Assembly (NCBI GenBank): GCA_951406725.2
Contig: OX597819.1
Span: forward strand, 92,318,001-92,382,000
DNA: 64,000 bases
Origin: Octopus vulgaris
Taxonomy: Eukaryota
Direction: 5' to 3'
Made by a program: the position numbers and the translations under genes. Numbering within the stretch: the first letter of the stretch is position 1; every line of letters begins with the position of its first letter. Positions 1,059 to 50,678 of the stretch are shown in pieces. The notes under the pieces are model-generated. The model saw only the letters and a list, made by a program, of their open reading frames with translations. It did not search any database and was not told the DNA's origin.

Positions 1059-1099
1059 CACATATGAGTTCTTCAAACATCTTAGTGGGTGAGGCTGCA

Positions 1100-1153
<54 letters not shown>

Positions 1154-2054
1154 GATCAGATTAAAAGAAGGATAATAACGTATATATGACGTTAACGTAT
1201 CTATAAATATAGATAACTATAAATAACCATAAATATAAGTAAAAATAAAAAATATTATACTTGGTAAACTTCACAGGTTTTTCAAAGAGTTGATCTCAGG
1301 TCCATCCAGTAATACACATTAGTGAAACAGGTCTACTTAATGATGCAACAAAACAACAAAACAAAAAAGCATAAAAATTTATATTTGCATATATGTAGGA
1401 TGCAAAAGCTTCAGAGAAAGAGGTCAAATATTCAAATTTGAAACATTCTTTGAGTTGTTCCCAGACTTAAAGTCGTCCCGAAGTTGGGAGAAAGGGGAAT
1501 GACGATTTGTCAGAAAGATGAAATTGCTGGCATTGATCGTTTCTTATAGTTTAGATTCCATATTGTCCGCTTATCAATGTTGATGGTGGAAGAGAAGATG
1601 TTTAGCGATTTGCAGCTATCCCTTGATATCGGGTTTTTTATGTAGCTCTCAATGACTGGTTTTGTTTGGCATAGGGTTGACAAGGTGATGGTTTAGCTCT
1701 GCTGTCAATTTTCCGCTAAAATTCTATGGATTTTAGACACAATCTGTTTAACTTTCCTACAGTTCCTATGTAAGAGCTCTGCTTTCTGACTAAAGTAATA
1801 CTTGACAGAGCTGGTTTCACTTTGGTTTTGGAATGCCAACATATGTTTAGAAACTATACTTCCCAAAACATTACACAATTGCGCGTTTTTGATGAATAAA
1901 TTTCCAGTCATACGCTCTCCAACAATGTGTTCTTTTTGTAATTATAGGTTACACATTCCACTTATCTAAGTATAGTTATCTGCAAAGAAAAAGAGATAAA
2001 GAATCGGACAGTTATATCGTGAAGTACAAGGCACACTGCCTATGATCATATATA

Positions 2055-3256
2055 CAGGGTGGCGCAGAGAGGACGGACGTTTTTGATATGGCTATTGCTC
2101 AGCCCCAGGGAGAGATATATGTCCGACAAGTACCATTCGGTCCGTGGTGTCTTAGCATTTTGTTTTTCTTTTCAGCTGAAGCCATGGTGCTGTGGACGAT
2201 AGAGCATTGCGGGTTTGCCTACGACAGTTATGTGAAAAATAATGAATCTGTCACAATAGTTCAGCGTGAGTTTCGGCGTCACTCCAACATTCACCGAAAT
2301 CAGGCTGTTCCCACCCGTAACACACTCTTACGTTGGCTGAATGCACTTCGTACGCGAGGTAATTTAATGAATAGGAGACCCGTGGAGGCTCCACGAACTG
2401 TACGGAGGTTAAAAAATGTGGAACGCATTTCCACCCGTACAAATTAGTCATTAGGCAATAATTGAAACATGGGACTATGCACAATGGTTTAATTTCGCAC
2501 GTCAGATAGAAAAAAATCTTTGAGGCAAATGACAACCTCATTTTCTTAATACGTGATGAAGCTTATTTTCATCTTAGTGGCATGGTGAATCTACAGAACT
2601 GTCGTTATTGGACTCTTGAAAATCTGAGAGAACTGCACGATCTGGTGTGGTGTTGGAAAAGCTGCTGTCCTTGGCCCATACTTTTTTAAAGACAATTATG
2701 CTGTTACTGTGAACTCTGAGCGTTATATCGAGATGATAAGCAACTTCATTGTGCCTGAATTACGATGAAAACGTATGCCTATTCGACGTGTATGCTTTCA
2801 GCATGATGGGGTGACGGTCCACACAGCCAGAGTAGGAAGAAAATGGGTGTTCTTCGCCCTCTCTTCGGTTACCGCCTCATTTCCAGGTTTGCTGACATTC
2901 CTTGGCTCCCTCGGTCTCCTGATTTGACCATGTGATTATTTCTTGTGGGAAAATCTTAAGGCACATGGATATGTGCATAAACCGCGTACATTGGACGATT
3001 TGAAGGAAGCTATTCGCGTGGAAGTCGCCCAGATCGACAGAGTAATGCTGAAGAGAGTGGAGGCCAACTTCCAAGAACGCCTTCAGAAATGCATCAATGA
3101 AAACGGACACTACATGATGGATGTTGTTTTTCACACTTGACTCTGACAAATGCTAATTCAATAAAAACACATTGACGTCAATAAAATTTGTTTGCAGCTA
3201 AAAATTTATGATTTTGTGAATTTTTCAAAAATGTCCGTCCTCTCTGCCCTACGCCG
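2055..3256 (+). mobile_element. Tc1/mariner-superfamily DNA transposon (DUF4817-HTH, DDxD type), decayed transposase
   Basis: TIRs CAGGGTGGCGCAGAGAGGACGGACGTTTTTGA / TCAAAAATGTCCGTCCTCTCTGCCCTACGCCG flanked by TA. Fragments MVLWTIEH...VQREFRRH...PTRNTLLRW, DEAYFHLSG.VN.QNCRYW, QHDG, PRSPDL..CDYFLW, with frameshifts and stops. Confidence 0.92.
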
Positions 3257-3288
3257 TATATATATATATATATACACATATATATACG

Positions 3289-3360
<72 letters not shown>

Positions 3361-5805: not shown

Positions 5806-6430
5806 ACAAGAAAATATAGTGGCAGCAAAAACGAAACAATCTCACATATTGAGTGAGTGCCTGATACCAAAAACATGCAATGAAAACGAAATAATATTAC
5901 AAGTAACTGCAGAATATGTGGAGATGGACAAGAAACAATAAATCATATTATCTCTAGCTGCCCAGTCTTGGCTAAGAAGGAATATATTCACAGACATGAC
6001 ATAGTTAGAACCTACATACATTGGAAGCTATGCCAACATTATGGAATAACAACAGAAAAAAGATGGTATAGGCACACACCAGAAAAGGTCACAGAAAACG
6101 AGAAAGCAACCATACTCTGGGATATGCCGATACACACAGATAGAGAAATTAAGGCCAACAGACCAGATATAGTAGTAGATGAAAAAAAAAACCAATATTA
6201 TAGATATTGCAATCACTGGGAATACACTAGAAAACATGGAAAAACACTACTAAAAGACAAAATTGCAAGGACGTAGGCTATGAAGAGAGTGTTTGTCATC
6301 CCAGTAGTTGTAAGGGCATTTGGAGCACTAGCAACTAATCTTGAGAAATATTTCAGAGAAATACTGGGCTTCAAACACATATATTTTACCTAGCAGTGTC
6401 AATTTGATAGCATGCACTGCTCCCGCACTC
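5806..6430 (+). mobile_element. R4/Dong-like non-LTR retrotransposon 3' fragment (CCHC + RLE endonuclease)
   Basis: CRIC...HIISSCPVLAKKEYIHRHD...IHWKLC...WY.H.PE...ILWDMPIHTD..IKANRPDIVV, VIPVVV.AFGA; flanked by (TAA)n. Confidence 0.85.
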
Positions 6431-18314: not shown

Positions 18315-19587
18315 CTGGGTCATCCCATAAATAATGCGGTTCTTTTATACTCCTTTTATTTTTCAAAATTAAGATAAACAAAGTTGTTTTTTAATCTAAA
18401 ATGTACTCTTCTTCATTTTCTACATTGCTCTTTCATCAGTCTTGTAGACTTGCAAGGTGCCTCTTCCAAAATGCACTTGTTCGTCACGAAAAATACTGTT
18501 TTCTTGTAGTGTTCTGACGTCGTCTACAAAATTCATACTTTTACAGTCCAAATGATTTTGAAGAAGACAGAATAATTGATAACCAGATGGGGCAACTTTC
18601 AGTGAATATGGTGGGTGGGGTATCATTTCCCATTCGAATTGCTCCAACCTTTGGAATGTCATCCTCGCTGTATGTTGTCGAGCATTATCCTGATAGAAGA
18701 ACACCTTTCGTCTTGAAACCAAAGATGCTACCTTTTCTTCTGGCGCTGACGCAAGTCGCTCAAACCGCTCGCAGAAGATCTCCTTTCTTATTGTTGGGTT
18801 TAGGGTTCAAAAGTTCAAAGTAGACTAAGCCTTTCATATCCCACCAAATGATAACAATACTTTACGTGTGTGAAGATATTTAGCCTGGGGGGGCCGGTTT
18901 GTCTCCTTTCCTTACCTACTGTTTTGGGCGTTTGAAATTTTTGTAGAAAACCCATTTCTCGACATCAGTCACTATTCGGTCCAAAAAAGTTCATTCGGGA
19001 GACGTGACAGCAAAGAAGAGCACACATTCACTCTCTGCGCGCAAAGTTTGTGACGAACCCATTGACTCAATTTGGTGATTTATCCGATAGCGCGCAGGTG
19101 TCGATGAATGGTTGAATGACCAAATCCAAACTCCTCTACTAGTTCCTTAACAGTTACGATGGGATTTTGCTCGTCCAGGGTTTGCAGGACACGCTCGTCG
19201 AGCTAGATCTTCCAGGATGAGGCTTGTCTACTAGAATGTAGTTTCCGGCTCGGAATTTCTGGAACCACCGTTGATACTGGCTTACGTTTATTATCCGATA
19301 CTCATATACTGCATTAATATTCCTAGCACTTTCCGCTGTGTTGTTGCCTTTATTGAACTTATAAAGCAAAATATGCCGAATATGATCCTTTATCACTTCC
19401 GTTATAGCTTTGAAAAAATAACCGTTAAAATCGAGCTGCACATTTCAAAACTTGCACTAAGAAGTACAAGGTAAAATTACTACCTGCTTTTATAGCAATT
19501 TGATGCAGGTAGTTTATCCTGCGCCCCCTCTGACTTCAAGTTCATGCAATTGAAAAAAGAACCCGCATTATTTCTGGGTTGATCCAG
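18315..19587 (-). mobile_element. mariner (DD34D-type) transposon, full length, decayed
   Basis: TIRs CTGGGTCATCCCATAAATAATGCGG / CCGCATTATTTCTGGGTTGATCCAG; HIRHILLY.F.KG...RWFQKFRAG, IVTD.EKW, QDNAR.H, HPPYS..VAPS.Y. Confidence 0.93.
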
Positions 19588-33168: not shown

Positions 33169-34456
33169 CGTGTGTGTGTATGTGTGTGTGTATGTGTGTG
33201 TGTGTATGTGTGTGAGCATGTGCATGTATGTATGTATAATAATATGTATATATATATATATATAAATGTATATGCCTATGCGGGAACTTTCTATTTGGCT
33301 GCCAGCATCAATTTTCTCTTCGAATTGATTTTATATACAGTATAACCTCTTATAGAGTAATTAATGATGTGAATGTAATTTCACTATAAATCAATAAAGA
33401 GTTATTAGTTATTAAAGTTTGAAAATTTTGGCAATTTTAGCCAATCGTAAGCCATACACATTCATGTCTACTTCGATAGTAACAAGCGGAACATGAGAAC
33501 TCTTTTGCCTATTGCCATAGTAACAGTTTTTGAAAAGTCTGTGATGAAGCAGGTGTTGACAGCAGCCTTTGAAAAGTCATTTATCTGCGGGGAAGCACGT
33601 GTTAAGTATTAATTGAATGCATTTCTAACTTTCGTTTTCAATTTTAGAAATATTTTGTAATGCGTTGCTTATTGCATGTTTAAATGCTTGTTTTTAAAGC
33701 ATATTTTGTTAACTCTTAATTTCATATATAACACATAAACATATACATCTTTCGGAACATAGTTATTTTATAAGATTTTGCTGGCTAATTTTAAAATTAA
33801 CATAAACATTTATTTACACCAAAGAAAATTAGCGGAGAAGTTTCATTTAATTCTTCCAAATCTTTCTGTTAAAAATTGAAATATGTTTATCGTATATCAC
33901 GTGATATTTATCGCATTTGCATTGAGCATTGATGCAGTTGTAAGGTATGCTAAAAATAACAGCTAAATAAGATTTAATTAAATGAAAGAAAATTATCGGA
34001 GACATAACACGTGTTGTTTACAAATATTGACAAGACGTGGTATTTTCAAGATGTTGACGACAAAATGTGCAGTCGGGTACAAAATGACATCTTCCAAATC
34101 CTATTTCCCGACGTGGTGAAAATGACCAAACTTTAAACCTCTATAACCTTGTATAACCTTGTATAACCAAGTGTATCATTGTGCCAAATTTGAAAATTTT
34201 CGGGAAACTTTAGGTTTTGAAATGCTGGCAGCCAAACCGTAAAGATACCATATGCGTCCTTTGTGGTTGTTTGTCCCTAGCACCAGTTGAAAACCGGTGT
34301 TATTTTGTTTACACTCCCATAACTTAGCAGTTATAAATAAGAGGTCGATGGAATAAGTATCAACCTTTCAAAATAAGCGCAGAGTCGTTTCTTTCCTCTA
34401 AAACTCTTGAAGGCGGGCCCCAGTATGTTGACAGTCTGATGACTGAAACAAATATA

Positions 34457-34482
<26 letters not shown>

Positions 34483-34495
<13 letters not shown>

Positions 34496-37400
34496 TAAGG
34501 GTAGAAATTGATATTTATCAATTAAGACCAGTGGTCTAGCATATTAAAAAAAGAATCCGAAGATTAAAATATTTATATATACCAATTAAGGACTGAACAC
34601 GAAAAGTGGACAGTCAACATGCTAGATATAGACGTCAAATCGTCATTCTCCACAAAAGATTATGTTCTCAGATCAAACTCAACACAAAACCATAGCAATA
34701 AACAAGTGAAAAATATACGAAATAAAATAATTACCCATGTACTAACTTAGTTTCAGCTGTTATTTTCCGCAAGGAAAACTGCAGCCATCATCAGCATGGT
34801 CCGTTATAAATGTAATTTGCTGGACTAGATGCAAACACGATACCGAAATATCGCGTGCATGGAGTTCAGCCTATTACATTTGAATATATCTTTCAAATGC
34901 CTTTACCTTGGCGCGTTGAAACCTGAGAAAACTAGCCTGCAGCTAATAATTAGCAGCAGTTAATTTATCGGTTAGAGAACATATTTATTTATATAAAATT
35001 AATTAAGGGTAGAAATTGATATTTATCAATTAAGACCAGTGGTCTAGCATATTAAAAAAAGAATCCGAAGATTAAAATATTTATATATACCAATTAAGGA
35101 CTGAACACGAAAAGTGGACAGTCAACATGCTAGATATAGACGTCAAATCGTCATTCTCCACAAAAGATTATGTTCTCAGATCAAACTCAACACAAAACCA
35201 TAGCAATAAACAAGTGAAAAATATACGAAATAAAATAATTACCCATGTACTAACTTAGTTTCAGCTGTTATTTTCCGCAAGGAAAACTGCAGCCATCATC
35301 AGCATGGTCCGTTATAAATGTAATTTGCTGGACTAGATGCAAACACGATACCGAAATATCGCGTGCATGGAGTTCAGCCTATTACATTTGAATATATCTT
35401 TCAAATGCCTTTACCTTGGCGCGTTGAAACCCGAGAAAACTAGCCTGCAGCTAATAATTAGCAGCAGTTAATTTATCGGTTAGAGAACATATTTATTTAT
35501 ATAAAATTAATTAAGGGTAGAAATTGATATTTATCAATTAAGACCAGTGGTCTAGCATATTAAAAAAAGAATCCGAAGATTAAAATATTTATATATACCA
35601 ATTAAGGACTGAACATGAAAAGTGGACAGTCAACATGCTAGATATAGACGTCAAATCGTCATTCTCCACAAAAGATTATGTTCTCAGATCAAACTCAACA
35701 CAAAACCATAGCAATAAACAAGTGAAAAATATACGAAATAAAATAATTACCCATGTACTAACTTAGTTTCAGCTGTTATTTTCCGCAAGGAAAACTGCAG
35801 CCATCATCAGCATGGTCCGTTATAAATGTAATTTGCTGGACTAGATGCAAACACGATACCGAAATATCGCGTGCATGGAGTTCAGCCTATTACATTTGAA
35901 TATATCTTTCAAATGCCTTTACCTTGGCGCGTTGAAACCCGAGAAAACTAGCCTGCAGCTAATAATTAGCAGCAGTTAATTTATCGGTTAGAGAACATAT
36001 TTATTTATATAAAATTAATTAAGGGTAGAAATTGATATTTATCAATTAAGACCAGTGGTCTAGCATATTAAAAAAAGAATCCGAAGATTAAAATATTTAT
36101 ATATACCAATTAAGGACTGAACACGAAAAGTGGACAGTCAACATGCTAGATATAGACGTCAAATCGTCATTCTCCACAAAAGATTATGTTCTCAGATCAA
36201 ACTCAACACAAAACCATAGCAATAAACAAGTGAAAAATATACGAAATAAAATAATTACCCATGTACTAACTTAGTTTCAGCTGTTATTTTCCGCAAGGAA
36301 AACTGCAGCCATCATCAGCATGGTCCGTTATAAATGTAATTTGCTGGACTAGATGCAAACACGATACCGAAATATCGCGTGCATGGAGTTCAGCCTATTA
36401 CATTTGAATATATCTTTCAAATGCCTTTACCTTGGCGCGTTGAAACCCGAGAAAACTAGCCTGCAGCTAATAATTAGCAGCAGTTAATTTATCGGTTAGA
36501 GAACATATTTATTTATATAAAATTAATTAAGGGTAGAAATTGATATTTATCAATTAAGACCAGTGGTCTAGCATATTAAAAAAAGAATCCGAAGATTAAA
36601 ATATTTATATATACCAATTAAGGACTGAACATGAAAAGTGGACAGTCAACATGCTAGATATAGACGTCAAATCGTCATTCTCCACAAAAGATTATGTTCT
36701 CAGATCAAACTCAACACAAAACCATAGCAATAAACAAGTGAAAAATATACGAAATAAAATAATTACCCATGTACTAACTTAGTTTCAGCTGTTATTTTCC
36801 GCAAGGAAAACTGCAGCCATCATCAGCATGGTCCGTTATAAATGTAATTTGCTGGACTAGATGCAAACACGATACCGAAATATCGCGTGCATGGAGTTCA
36901 GCCTATTACATTTGAATATATCTTTCAAATGCCTTTACCTTGGCGCGTTGAAACCCGAGAAAACTAGCCTGCAGCTAATAATTAGCAGCAGTTAATTTAT
37001 CGGTTAGAGAACATATTTATTTATATAAAATTAATTAAGGGTAGAAATTGATATTTATCAATTAAGACCAGTGGTCTAGCATATTAAAAAAAGAATCCGA
37101 AGATTAAAATATTTATATATACCAATTAAGGACTGAACACGAAAAGTGGACAGTCAACATGCTAGATATAGACGTCAAATCGTCATTCTCCACAAAAGAT
37201 TATGTTCTCAGATCAAACTCAACACAAAACCATAGCAATAAACAAGTGAAAAATATACGAAATAAAATAATTACCCATGTACTAACTTAGTTTCAGCTGT
37301 TATTTTCCGCAAGGAAAACTGCAGCCATCATCAGCATGGTCCGTTATAAATGTAATTTGCTGGACTAGATGCAAACACGATACCGAAATATCGCGTGCAT

Positions 37401-38070
37401 GGAGTTCAGCCTATTACATTTGAATATATCTTTCAAATGCCTTTACCTTGGCGCGTTGAAACCCGAGAAAACTAGCCTGCAGCTAATAATTAGCAGCAGT
37501 TAATTTATCGGTTAGAGAACATATTTATTTATATAAAATTAATTAAGGGTAGAAATTGATATTTATCAATTAAGACCAGTGGTCTAGCATATTAAAAAAA
37601 GAATCCGAAGATTAAAATATTTATATATACCAATTAAGGACTGAACATGAAAAGTGGACAGTCAACATGCTAGATATAGACGTCAAATCGTCATTCTCCA
37701 CAAAAGATTATGTTCTCAGATCAAACTCAACACAAAACCATAGCAATAAACAAGTGAAAAATATACGAAATAAAATAATTACCCATGTACTAACTTAGTT
37801 TCAGCTGTTATTTTCCACAAGGAAAACTGCAGCCATCATCAGCATGGTCCGTTATAAATGTAATTTGCTGGACTAGATGCAAACACGATACCGAAATATC
37901 GCGTGCATGGAGTTCAGCCTATTACATTTGAATATATCTTTCAAATGCCTTTACCTTGGCGCGTTGAAACCCGAGAAAACTAGCCTGCAGCTAATAATTA
38001 GCAGCAGTTAATTTATCGGTTAGAGAACATATTTATTTATATAAAATTAATTAAGGGTAGAAATTGATAT
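34483..38070 (-). repeat. Tandem array, 7 x 508 bp plus ~30 bp, hammerhead-bearing (non-LTR retrozyme-like)
   Basis: TTAATTAAGGGTAG recurs at 34491, 34999, 35507, 36015, 36523, 37031, 37539 and 38047; copies differ at only about 3 positions; bounded by (TA)n. Confidence 0.97.
34735..34799 (-). ncRNA. Type I hammerhead ribozyme (also at +508n: 35243, 35751, 36259, 36767, 37275, 37783)
   Basis: Minus strand: CCATG-CTGATGA-T-GGCTG-cag-TTTTCC-ttgc-GGAAAA-taa-CAGCT-GAAA-CTAA-g-TTAG-TA-CATGG; intact core, stems I/II/III, GUA cleavage between 34740 and 34739. Confidence 0.88.
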
Positions 38071-38073
38071 TGA

Positions 38074-38228
38074 TATTTTATTTCGTATATTTTTCACTTG
38101 TTTATTGCTATGGTTTTGTGTTGAGTTTGATCTGAGAACATAATCTTTTGTGGAGAATGACGATTTGACGTCTATATCTAGCATGTTGACTGTCCACTTT
38201 TCGTGTTCAGTCCTTAATTGGTATATAT
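38074..38228 (+). repeat. Inverted partial copy of the 508-bp unit
   Basis: Reverse complement of about 34575-34729. Confidence 0.95.
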
Positions 38229-38249
38229 ATATATATATATATATGGAAT

Positions 38250-49294: not shown

Positions 49295-49459
49295 GCAACT
49301 AGGAGTACCCTGTTTCGTGAGGATTACCAGTTGCAGAACTGTGTTGCCATTATTTGAACTGTCTTCCTTCGTCCTTTTCTCTGTTCTGTCTTTCTGTTCT
49401 GTCATTGTGTTTTTTTCTTATTGGACTTTGAACTTTTAGTTGAACTTTTTTTCAAAATC

Positions 49460-50678
49460 ATGGCAACAAAAGAAACCACTGCTTTGGAATGGGAGGTTGT
49501 CCCACCCAAGCAGTGGATTGAAAGTCTTGAGAAGAGGACGGTGGTCCTACGAACCTATTCTAGGTCGCGTGGAGCTATCGCCCTCTTCGACAGGAGCACC
49601 ATAGAGAAAGAGTTGGGGGACCACCTACCAACGATAAAGTTTATTTCTCGGGGGAGTAAATTTGCAACGGTGTGGTTGCTGTTTGGTACCCCCGAGGAAG
49701 CTAGCAGATTTGCTAGCGATCCACTGGAGGGAGAGGAAATTTTGTTCCTCCCCTCGTATTGTGGCAGAAAAGTAAAAAGAGCCTGGGTTTGTGGGCTGCC
49801 CCCGGTCACGGAGGCGGAATGGATCGAGAAGACGATCCGGCGAGGCCTGGGGGATAGCGGACCCAGGCTACTGAGTGTGAAAATGGCTCCCGCGGTCGCC
49901 TGGGAGGGGTCAAAGGCAACTTTGACCCTGTGGACACCGGTGGCCGTGGGAGAAATGAAATTCCAGGACTTCCTGAGAATGGCTGGGCACAGGTACCCGG
50001 TGATACTCGAGGGACGCCCCCCAAGTGTCACCTGTGCCTGAAGCCCGGACATATCAAGAGGAATTGTCCCGGGGGCCGTGGTGGTGCCCCGGAGCATGAA
50101 GGGGAAAAGGCGCCCGCCGCCCCCTCATTGGAGGGGGAGACGGTGGAAGTCGTGGAGGAGGTTGCCTCCACGAAAAGAAAGAGACAGGCGAGCAACAATG
50201 GCTGCTCGCCAAAGAACGCTCAGGTGGCGGAGGGGGATAGCGATCCCCCGTGTCTGGTGACGGAGTCCCCTGGGTCAGCAGTCTCCCCCAAAAGAAGGAG
50301 GAGAAAAAGAAAGAAAGGTCGGGCGGCTGATATTCATGAGCCGCAGACGTTGGCGGCGGGAACTGTGCCGCCAACGAAAGAACTGAACGTATTGGTCCTC
50401 TTCTATAGAGGAGGAGAAATTGAAAAAAAATGATGGAAGAGTACCACAAGGGAGCTCCTTTAGCCTTCACACAGGACCCCGAATGGCCTCCGTAGATAGC
50501 TGTGGAGGCCGTGGCGTTCGACGTGACGCTTGGGCTAAAGGAGCTCAATGAAGATTATAGCTTGGTCCCGGGCGACGCGAACTCGGAACTTGATTACGTT
50601 CTGAGGGAGGCGTGTTTGATGGTGGAGGGCGCGGGCACAAGCTATTTCGAGGACGATATGTATTTATTGAACTGTTAG
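49460..50678 (+). pseudogene. Gag-like/ORF1 nucleic-acid-binding protein with CCHC zinc knuckle, disrupted
   Basis: ATG 49460 MATKETTALEW...VILEGRPP/KCHLCLKPGHIKRNCP (CX2CX4HX4C); frameshifts in poly-C (~50017-50022) and poly-A (~50423-50430), one in-frame TAG (~50493); basic KRRRRKRKK tract; ends at TAG 50678. Confidence 0.8.

Follow-up and report, generated by a model that had tools for sequence, protein, structure and literature searches.

How does a tandem array come to alternate between two letters at a single position, and does such a pattern record the template from which the array was copied? Within the window, by which we mean the whole 64,000-nucleotide stretch of DNA that was analysed, the sequence GAACA(C/T)GAAAAG occurs in seven plus-strand copies spaced 508 bp apart, and its variable letter (at 34600, 35108, 35616, 36124, 36632, 37140 and 37648) reads C, C, T, C, T, C, T. 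These letters and coordinates agree exactly with a preliminary description of the stretch, which had taken the pattern for a 1016-bp period and for the trace of a two-unit template such as an RNA circle, or else of unequal exchange by two units. An eighth, inverted copy of the site carries C at 38203. The alternation is present in the assembly but thin, and a lone base cannot settle its origin; duplication of two units at the DNA level explains it somewhat better than does copying from a two-unit RNA circle.

The features of the array and its ends are collected in Table 1. When the unit is circularised, its longest stop-free frame spans 60 amino acids on the plus strand and 36 on the minus strand, and no other copies of the 508-bp unit were found elsewhere in the 64-kb window. 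The match to the unit starts at 34482, within a 6-nt TA tract common to the unit and the left (TA)n tract, and the outer ends of the insertion coincide with the unit's two longest TA tracts (34482-34487, 6 nt; 38222-38229, 8 nt), which lie 92 bp apart. Judged by its sequence, the array was inserted recently and represents a non-autonomous retroelement of the non-LTR retrozyme type that carries a hammerhead. Its mobilising enzyme was probably a Penelope-like reverse transcriptase, an identification made by analogy. We infer target-primed copying from both strands of the (TA)n site, in which a second primer would yield the inversion. We liken this presumed mode of inversion to twin priming; a literature search found no link of twin priming to Penelope-like elements. 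The inverted arm breaks off 10 nt before it would reach the predicted hammerhead cut, which suggests, in this one case, a linear, cleaved template for that arm.

Table 1. Coordinates of the array, its ribozyme motif, its variable sites and its ends (positions in the window; a dot marks features given without a strand).
Feature	Position	Strand	Remarks
Head-to-tail array, 7.07 copies of the 508-bp non-coding unit	34482..38071	- (RNA-sense)	33% GC
(TA)n tract, left end	34459..34487	.	TRF, 14.5 copies; probably both target and primer for the first cDNA
Type I hammerhead motif, copy 1	34735..34799	-	Repeats every 508 bp, in 7/7 full units; own motif scan
Alternating site, unit position 125	34600..37648	+	CpG/TpG; 140 nt 3' of the predicted cut on the RNA, outside the ribozyme
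Private CpG>TpG change, copy 1 only	34924..34924	+	C>T
Private CpG>CpA change, copy 7 only	37817..37817	+	G>A; loop region of stem II
Perfect 1016-bp periodicity	34925..37816	.	2892 bp, 2.85 dimers
Inversion junction	38064..38078	.	6-bp TTGATA duplication and 5-nt TATTT microhomology between direct and inverted arms
Inverted truncated copy, 156 bp (= 34574-34729)	38074..38229	+	C at the alternating site
(TA)n tract, right end	38222..38244	.	Overlaps the longest TA tract of the unit (8 nt); probably primed the second, inverted cDNA

The hammerhead motif consists of stem I (CCAUG/CAUGG), the core CUGAUGA and GAAA, a long stem II whose closing pair is G.U, after a bulged U, and a stem III formed by the near-palindrome ACUAAGUUAGU. 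Motif-scan matches in the window were confined to the seven unit hammerheads, and cleavage is predicted between 34739 and 34740 and at the same place displaced by multiples of 508. Stems I and II are present in the minimum-energy fold (z -2.05). Rfam returned no matches at the gathering score on the window and four chance-level matches on one unit, none of them to a hammerhead, and exact hammerhead-core patterns had no matches in metagenome, viral and prokaryote collections. At hammerhead position 11.1 this copy has U, in place of the canonical C found in some family members, and the ribozyme of this array may be a weak cutter, to judge from this base. Left of the insertion, on the plus strand at 34426-34450, we also noticed a core-like string (CTGATGA..GAAAC) that lacks stem II and failed the motif scan; its occurrence is probably due to chance.

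Tandem units with a type I hammerhead define non-LTR retrozymes (PMC7229834; bioRxiv 10.64898/2026.07.22.740005), and we take the array, on these features, for an ordinary member of this known class with Penelope-type ends. Metazoan non-LTR retrozymes (Cervera and de la Pena 2020, PMC7229834; Li, Clavereau and Pollet 2026) likewise form tandem, non-coding units of low GC content (limit below 45-50%, compared to 33% here), with one type I hammerhead per unit (7/7 here by motif scan) and a high copy number. With about 7 units the array falls among the 75% of retrozyme families that have 7 or fewer (bioRxiv 10.64898/2026.07.22.740005), and its 508-bp unit lies above the 150-450 bp of PMC7229834 but inside the 51-972 bp of bioRxiv 10.64898/2026.07.22.740005. 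In contrast, stem II of non-LTR retrozymes is usually closed by G-C rather than G.U, and, with respect to the cleavage and circles of retrozymes, the array described here is known from sequence and folding alone. The excerpts of PMC7229834 and bioRxiv 10.64898/2026.07.22.740005 describe no alternating variants within a retrozyme array, and none were found in the titles and abstract openings listed by literature searches, which is a weak negative.

The ends of the array resemble those of Penelope-like insertions (Craig et al. 2021, PMC8557442; Frangieh et al. 2024, PMC11167929), which likewise have an inverted truncated copy adjoining the 5' end, a (TA)n target, two internal start sites of reverse transcription and an extension at one end; Penelope-like elements are described as pLTR tandems with an inverted, 5'-truncated copy (PMC8557442). 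Unlike an autonomous Penelope-like element, the array has no open frame for a reverse transcriptase or endonuclease, and no reverse transcriptase or GIY-YIG-type domain that might mark an autonomous partner was found in the 7 of 32 long window frames scanned against Pfam. The start sites are also 92 bp apart here, compared to 30-40 bp in Penelope-like insertions, and they match the target TA over 6 and 8 nt, whereas those of the anole element are without target homology (PMC11167929). Starts at TA tracts that match the genomic (TA)n suggest homology-assisted priming, unlike that of the anole Penelope-like element. Both ends at the longest TA tracts, together with an arm that stops short of the cut, support Penelope-type mobilisation of retrozymes, at one locus.

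Evidence on the family to which the unit belongs comes from contigs of four out of 24 listed public runs, all of them sets of contigs (one of the four, X7, is RNA by guess only), aligned to copy 1 and its left flank (33900-34995) with the TA tract excluded. Summed contig depth over the unit was about 8,000-900,000 compared to 8-80 on the single-copy flank 34344-34454 in all three DNA-type runs, and, while summed depth is not a copy number, the unit belongs to a dispersed, very high-copy family with other (TA)n junctions. Other family copies start near 34569 behind a TA run, as seen in loose contig ends from runs X13 and X7. T at 34600 was below 3% (no row at threshold) in each of the four runs, all of which covered the bin; since contigs drop rare variants, this marks T as uncommon and is not proof of its absence. 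At 34924, every aligned contig in the four runs carries C, and the private T of copy 1 appears in none. Common family variants lie at CpG in 2 of 17 cases, one being 34924. Variants of loop III (34743-34787), identified by visual inspection of an indel table and of the loose ends of a few contigs, include the self-complementary AAUU, GAUC and AAAUUU, as well as AAAGUU, which is not fully so.

Two further observations were made in these contigs. One contig of run X7 holds a diverged family copy joined in opposite orientations, 34732 to 34835, and this junction (34749-34835 / 34655-34732) is a second inversion junction at most 10 nt from the predicted cut. The left flank at 33937-34343 is a high-copy diverged repeat with summed depth of up to about 35,000.

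Variation among the copies is sparse. Inside the array, 3 of 508 positions per unit vary (unit position 125, 34924 and 37817), there are no indels among the seven units, homopolymers included, and two more columns differ solely in the TA flank of copy 1. The variable sites are CpG transitions in all three cases, with 12 of the 15 CpGs per unit constant across copies. At the alternating site, 1 of 5 comparisons mismatch at a lag of 1016 and 5 of 6 at a lag of 508, and together with the perfect run from 34925 to 37816 this bears out part of the proposed 1016-bp period. The period nonetheless hangs on one CpG site and breaks at copy 1; just one of the three variable sites alternates in phase, and the array holds no second supporting site. 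Established higher-order repeats carry many diagnostic sites.

The order of the letters can be compared with chance directly. Four C and three T can be arranged in 35 orders, of which 3 (0.086) alternate equally well, 7 have at least six runs, and 12 show a period of 2 or 3 with at most one mismatch; the order by itself is not beyond chance and is at most suggestive. With five CpG changes over 30 strand-sites, the probability of three hits on one site is 0.7% at even rates, 3% if CpG rates are moderately uneven and 13% if they are strongly so, and the three hits at one site are less readily due to chance than their order. The joint probability of independent CpG decay and alternation is 0.06-1.1%. 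Both private changes fall in the two end units, for which the chance is (2/7)^2 = 0.08.

Because T is below 3% in four runs of a high-copy family, the three Ts probably share one origin, and T is most simply explained as a single local DNA change that was afterwards copied. A CpG transition is a DNA-type signature and is not expected to be favoured by RNA copying. Two other sources of the T were considered. That T is an allele common in the family and distributed over the units by chance is disfavoured by the lack of a row at 3% in any of the four runs (bearing in mind the loss of rare variants from contigs), and a reverse-transcriptase error on a monomer circle is rejected by argument, since such an error would not be carried to later rounds.

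The restriction of the changes to CpG is itself unusual for the window. In older repeats, transitions affect 118 of 713 CpG sites compared to 381 of 5286 other sites, an excess of about 2.3-fold (36 overlapping alignments), and under this spectrum three CpG transitions out of three would be expected about 3 times in 10,000. The CpG observed/expected ratio of the window is 0.87, and in two 98%-identical repeat pairs (11021-11317/11513-11810 and 39431-39633/41059-41260) none of the seven substitutions lies at CpG. Set against this spectrum, CpG-only variation implies either that the array or its parent is specifically methylated or that the calls are technical. To the eye, the microsatellites of the window have a pattern that may be of cephalopod type. 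In octopus, methylation is found on gene bodies and is absent from transposons (PMC9476566). If that pattern applies here, CpG decay in place becomes less likely outside a methylated gene, and readings that invoke a parent array or an artefact gain.

We put it just short of an even chance, which makes it the best of the explanations weighed, that one CpG change was spread by two-unit DNA duplication, in this array or in a parent array; this probability and those given to the alternatives are judgements rather than computed posteriors. One CpG would have become TpG in one unit, and the C-then-T block of two units would have been duplicated by unequal exchange, slippage or reiterated copying to give C-(C-T)x3. 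The duplication could have taken place here, once the array had inserted, or earlier in a parent array that gave rise to an uncut multimeric transcript, from which the present array was copied; a copy of the parent's uncut multimer would look the same as a change in place and would shift the DNA event to the parent. Uncut RNA is the main insertion substrate of a Penelope-like protein in vitro (PMC11167929). In satellites, variants spread by unequal crossing-over and conversion, and higher-order repeats arise by joint amplification of adjacent monomers (PMC5615363). The amplification of two neighbouring monomers as a block would be shared with the array, but here a single base in 508 separates the monomers of the dimer and the block recurs fewer than three times, while higher-order repeats reach far more copies.

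A toy model of duplication and deletion (200,000 trials per setting, with block weights of our own choosing) yielded 1076-3296 outcomes with seven units and three Ts. When blocks of two and three units were allowed, 15-26% of outcomes alternated as well as the array and 5-8% had its exact order. Duplication and deletion of one unit at a time was rejected, as none of the 3296 and 1076 qualifying outcomes alternated. One-unit steps never alternate in this model, so a step of at least two units is needed if the three Ts share an origin and there was no gene conversion; under those two premises, the two-unit step proposed in the preliminary description is upheld.

An internal two-unit duplication also leaves an out-of-phase end unit without extra assumptions, and the position of both private changes in the end units is in its favour. 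Against such a duplication, it draws on one site, requires two two-unit events or one reiterated event, and requires the absence of one-unit events that would have placed two Ts next to each other. Two 1016-bp duplications would leave a perfect period of at least 3048 bp, compared to the 2892 bp seen, so at least one private change would be younger than the last duplication; we infer the duplications and this order of events from the array as it stands. Array-specific methylation must also be assumed, given the 2.3-fold CpG excess and the observed/expected ratio of 0.87 in the window.

Among the alternatives, the one that survives best, though we think it unlikely, is that gene conversion carried T from one unit to two others, or that a hot methylated CpG changed repeatedly, with the order due to chance and no true period. 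The counts of 3 in 35 orders that alternate equally and 12 in 35 that show a period of 2 or 3 fit this account, as does the finding that the variants are all CpG transitions, for which strongly uneven rates would bring three hits to 13%. For conversion, however, the alternating order must still arise (0.086), and a hot spot has to contend both with the 0.06-1.1% for independent decay plus alternation and with the 12 of 15 CpGs per unit that are invariant. Random CpG decay, which had been named as one of the findings that would overturn a two-unit period, is a partial match: all three variants, the alternating one included, are CpG transitions, but purely independent decay is improbable.

It is quite unlikely, in our view, that the pattern is an artefact, whether a C-to-T miscall at a modified CpG in units that short reads cannot polish or a mixture of haplotypes. 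All three changes are C>T or G>A at CpG, at the 3 in 10,000 expected under the older-repeat spectrum, and the 98%-identical pairs elsewhere in the window have 0/7 substitutions at CpG; the private T at 34924 is in none of the aligned contigs; and C-to-T and G-to-A miscalls at modified bases are described in nanopore R10.4.1 bacterial assemblies (PMC11610603). On the other hand, the lack of indels over seven units, homopolymers included, points to an accurate assembly, and the cited miscalls lie at bacterial motifs in nanopore data, while the platform of this assembly may differ. CpG calls also improved on R10.4 according to the same source (PMC11610603), and, as rare variants drop from contigs, the missing T at 34924 shows no absence.

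The least likely of the four readings, in our estimate, is a heterodimeric RNA template, that is, a transcript of one C and one T parent unit, cut at the outer hammerheads and either circularised or re-used as a linear molecule. Copying would be primed on another molecule at the TA tract, would cross at the hammerhead cut and would continue through about three rounds of the C/T dimer, ending with a second, inverted cDNA made from cleaved linear RNA. With the predicted cut as the starting point, 34740-37787 amounts to exactly three C/T dimers, from which 34924 alone deviates, the differing pieces lie outside that interval, and the inverted arm holds an in-phase C. The fit of the register is weak, however, as the permitted start window covers 168 of 508 bp, and the C of the inverted arm is the majority letter of the family. 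Furthermore, a dimer circle predicts strict alternation, with T in copy 1, whereas copy 1 is C and out of phase, so that an extra event, either a template switch or a later change, is needed.

Precedents for such a template are at hand: dimer and trimer RNAs occur in axolotl tissues, circular dimers are a minor product in vitro (PMC7229834), and tandem cDNA made from circles is the proposed route for retrozymes (PMC7229834, PMC4209133). The inverted arm that stops 10 nt from the cut nevertheless suggests, as one case, a template that was linear and cleaved. The folding of the ribozyme also bears on this reading. Stem III is self-complementary; predicted energies are +0.8 to +2.2 kcal/mol for the monomer hairpin and -8.6 kcal/mol for the duplex, and for an RNA of two units the double fold is more stable by 2.0 kcal/mol than a pair of single folds, though it stands 4.0 kcal/mol above the free ensemble. 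These models indicate that stem III favours a double hammerhead, in line with the earlier proposal that a weak stem III promotes dimeric folding. The double hammerheads found in Penelope-like elements and in repeats of newt and axolotl (PMC4209133, PMC7229834) likewise have a helix III that is unstable in the monomer, and its self-complementary loop gives a long helix between two ribozymes. In contrast with the 1-2 pairs of the described cases, 3-4 pairs are possible in the monomer helix III here, at +0.8 to +1.6 kcal/mol, so that a strict dependence on dimer folding would not be implied.

The further step from dimeric folding to a dimeric circular template is not supported. Double hammerheads permit cleavage in multimers and avoid it in monomer circles (PMC4209133), and dimer constructs release monomers (PMC7229834). 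By analogy with these systems, the modelled double fold would cut both sites and reduce dimers to monomers, and would favour no dimer circle. It is predicted to be equally accessible in a dimer circle (4.1 kcal/mol above the free ensemble) and in a linear dimer (4.0 kcal/mol), and the circle would be cut as well. Hammerhead accessibility is 4.64 kcal/mol with the C allele and with the T allele, so that T provides, in this model, no reason for a skipped cut. The related proposal that a T would block the ribozyme next to it and thereby generate C/T dimers was rejected on the same equality.

The distinction would matter if the alternation were RNA-derived, for then the origin of retrozyme and Penelope tandems, whether from a circle, a multimer or later DNA exchange, is at stake. 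A rolling-circle step has been proposed for both, and is not shown in the excerpts of the texts cited here. Should a heterodimeric template prove correct, the phase of variants in young arrays would reveal directly, from genomic sequence, both the size of the template and the rolling-circle step, and many young family copies would allow variants to be phased across arrays. One site in one array is too little for a claim about an RNA template.

Traces of other elements were observed elsewhere in the window. A frame at 18420-18806 presumably resembles mariner and had no Pfam match, and a zf-RVT-like fragment at 5884-6276 scored below the cut-off. Two frames at 49358-50433 form a gag-like pair in which a weak zinc knuckle was noted, and a DUF4817 helix-turn-helix fragment is located at 2046-2447.
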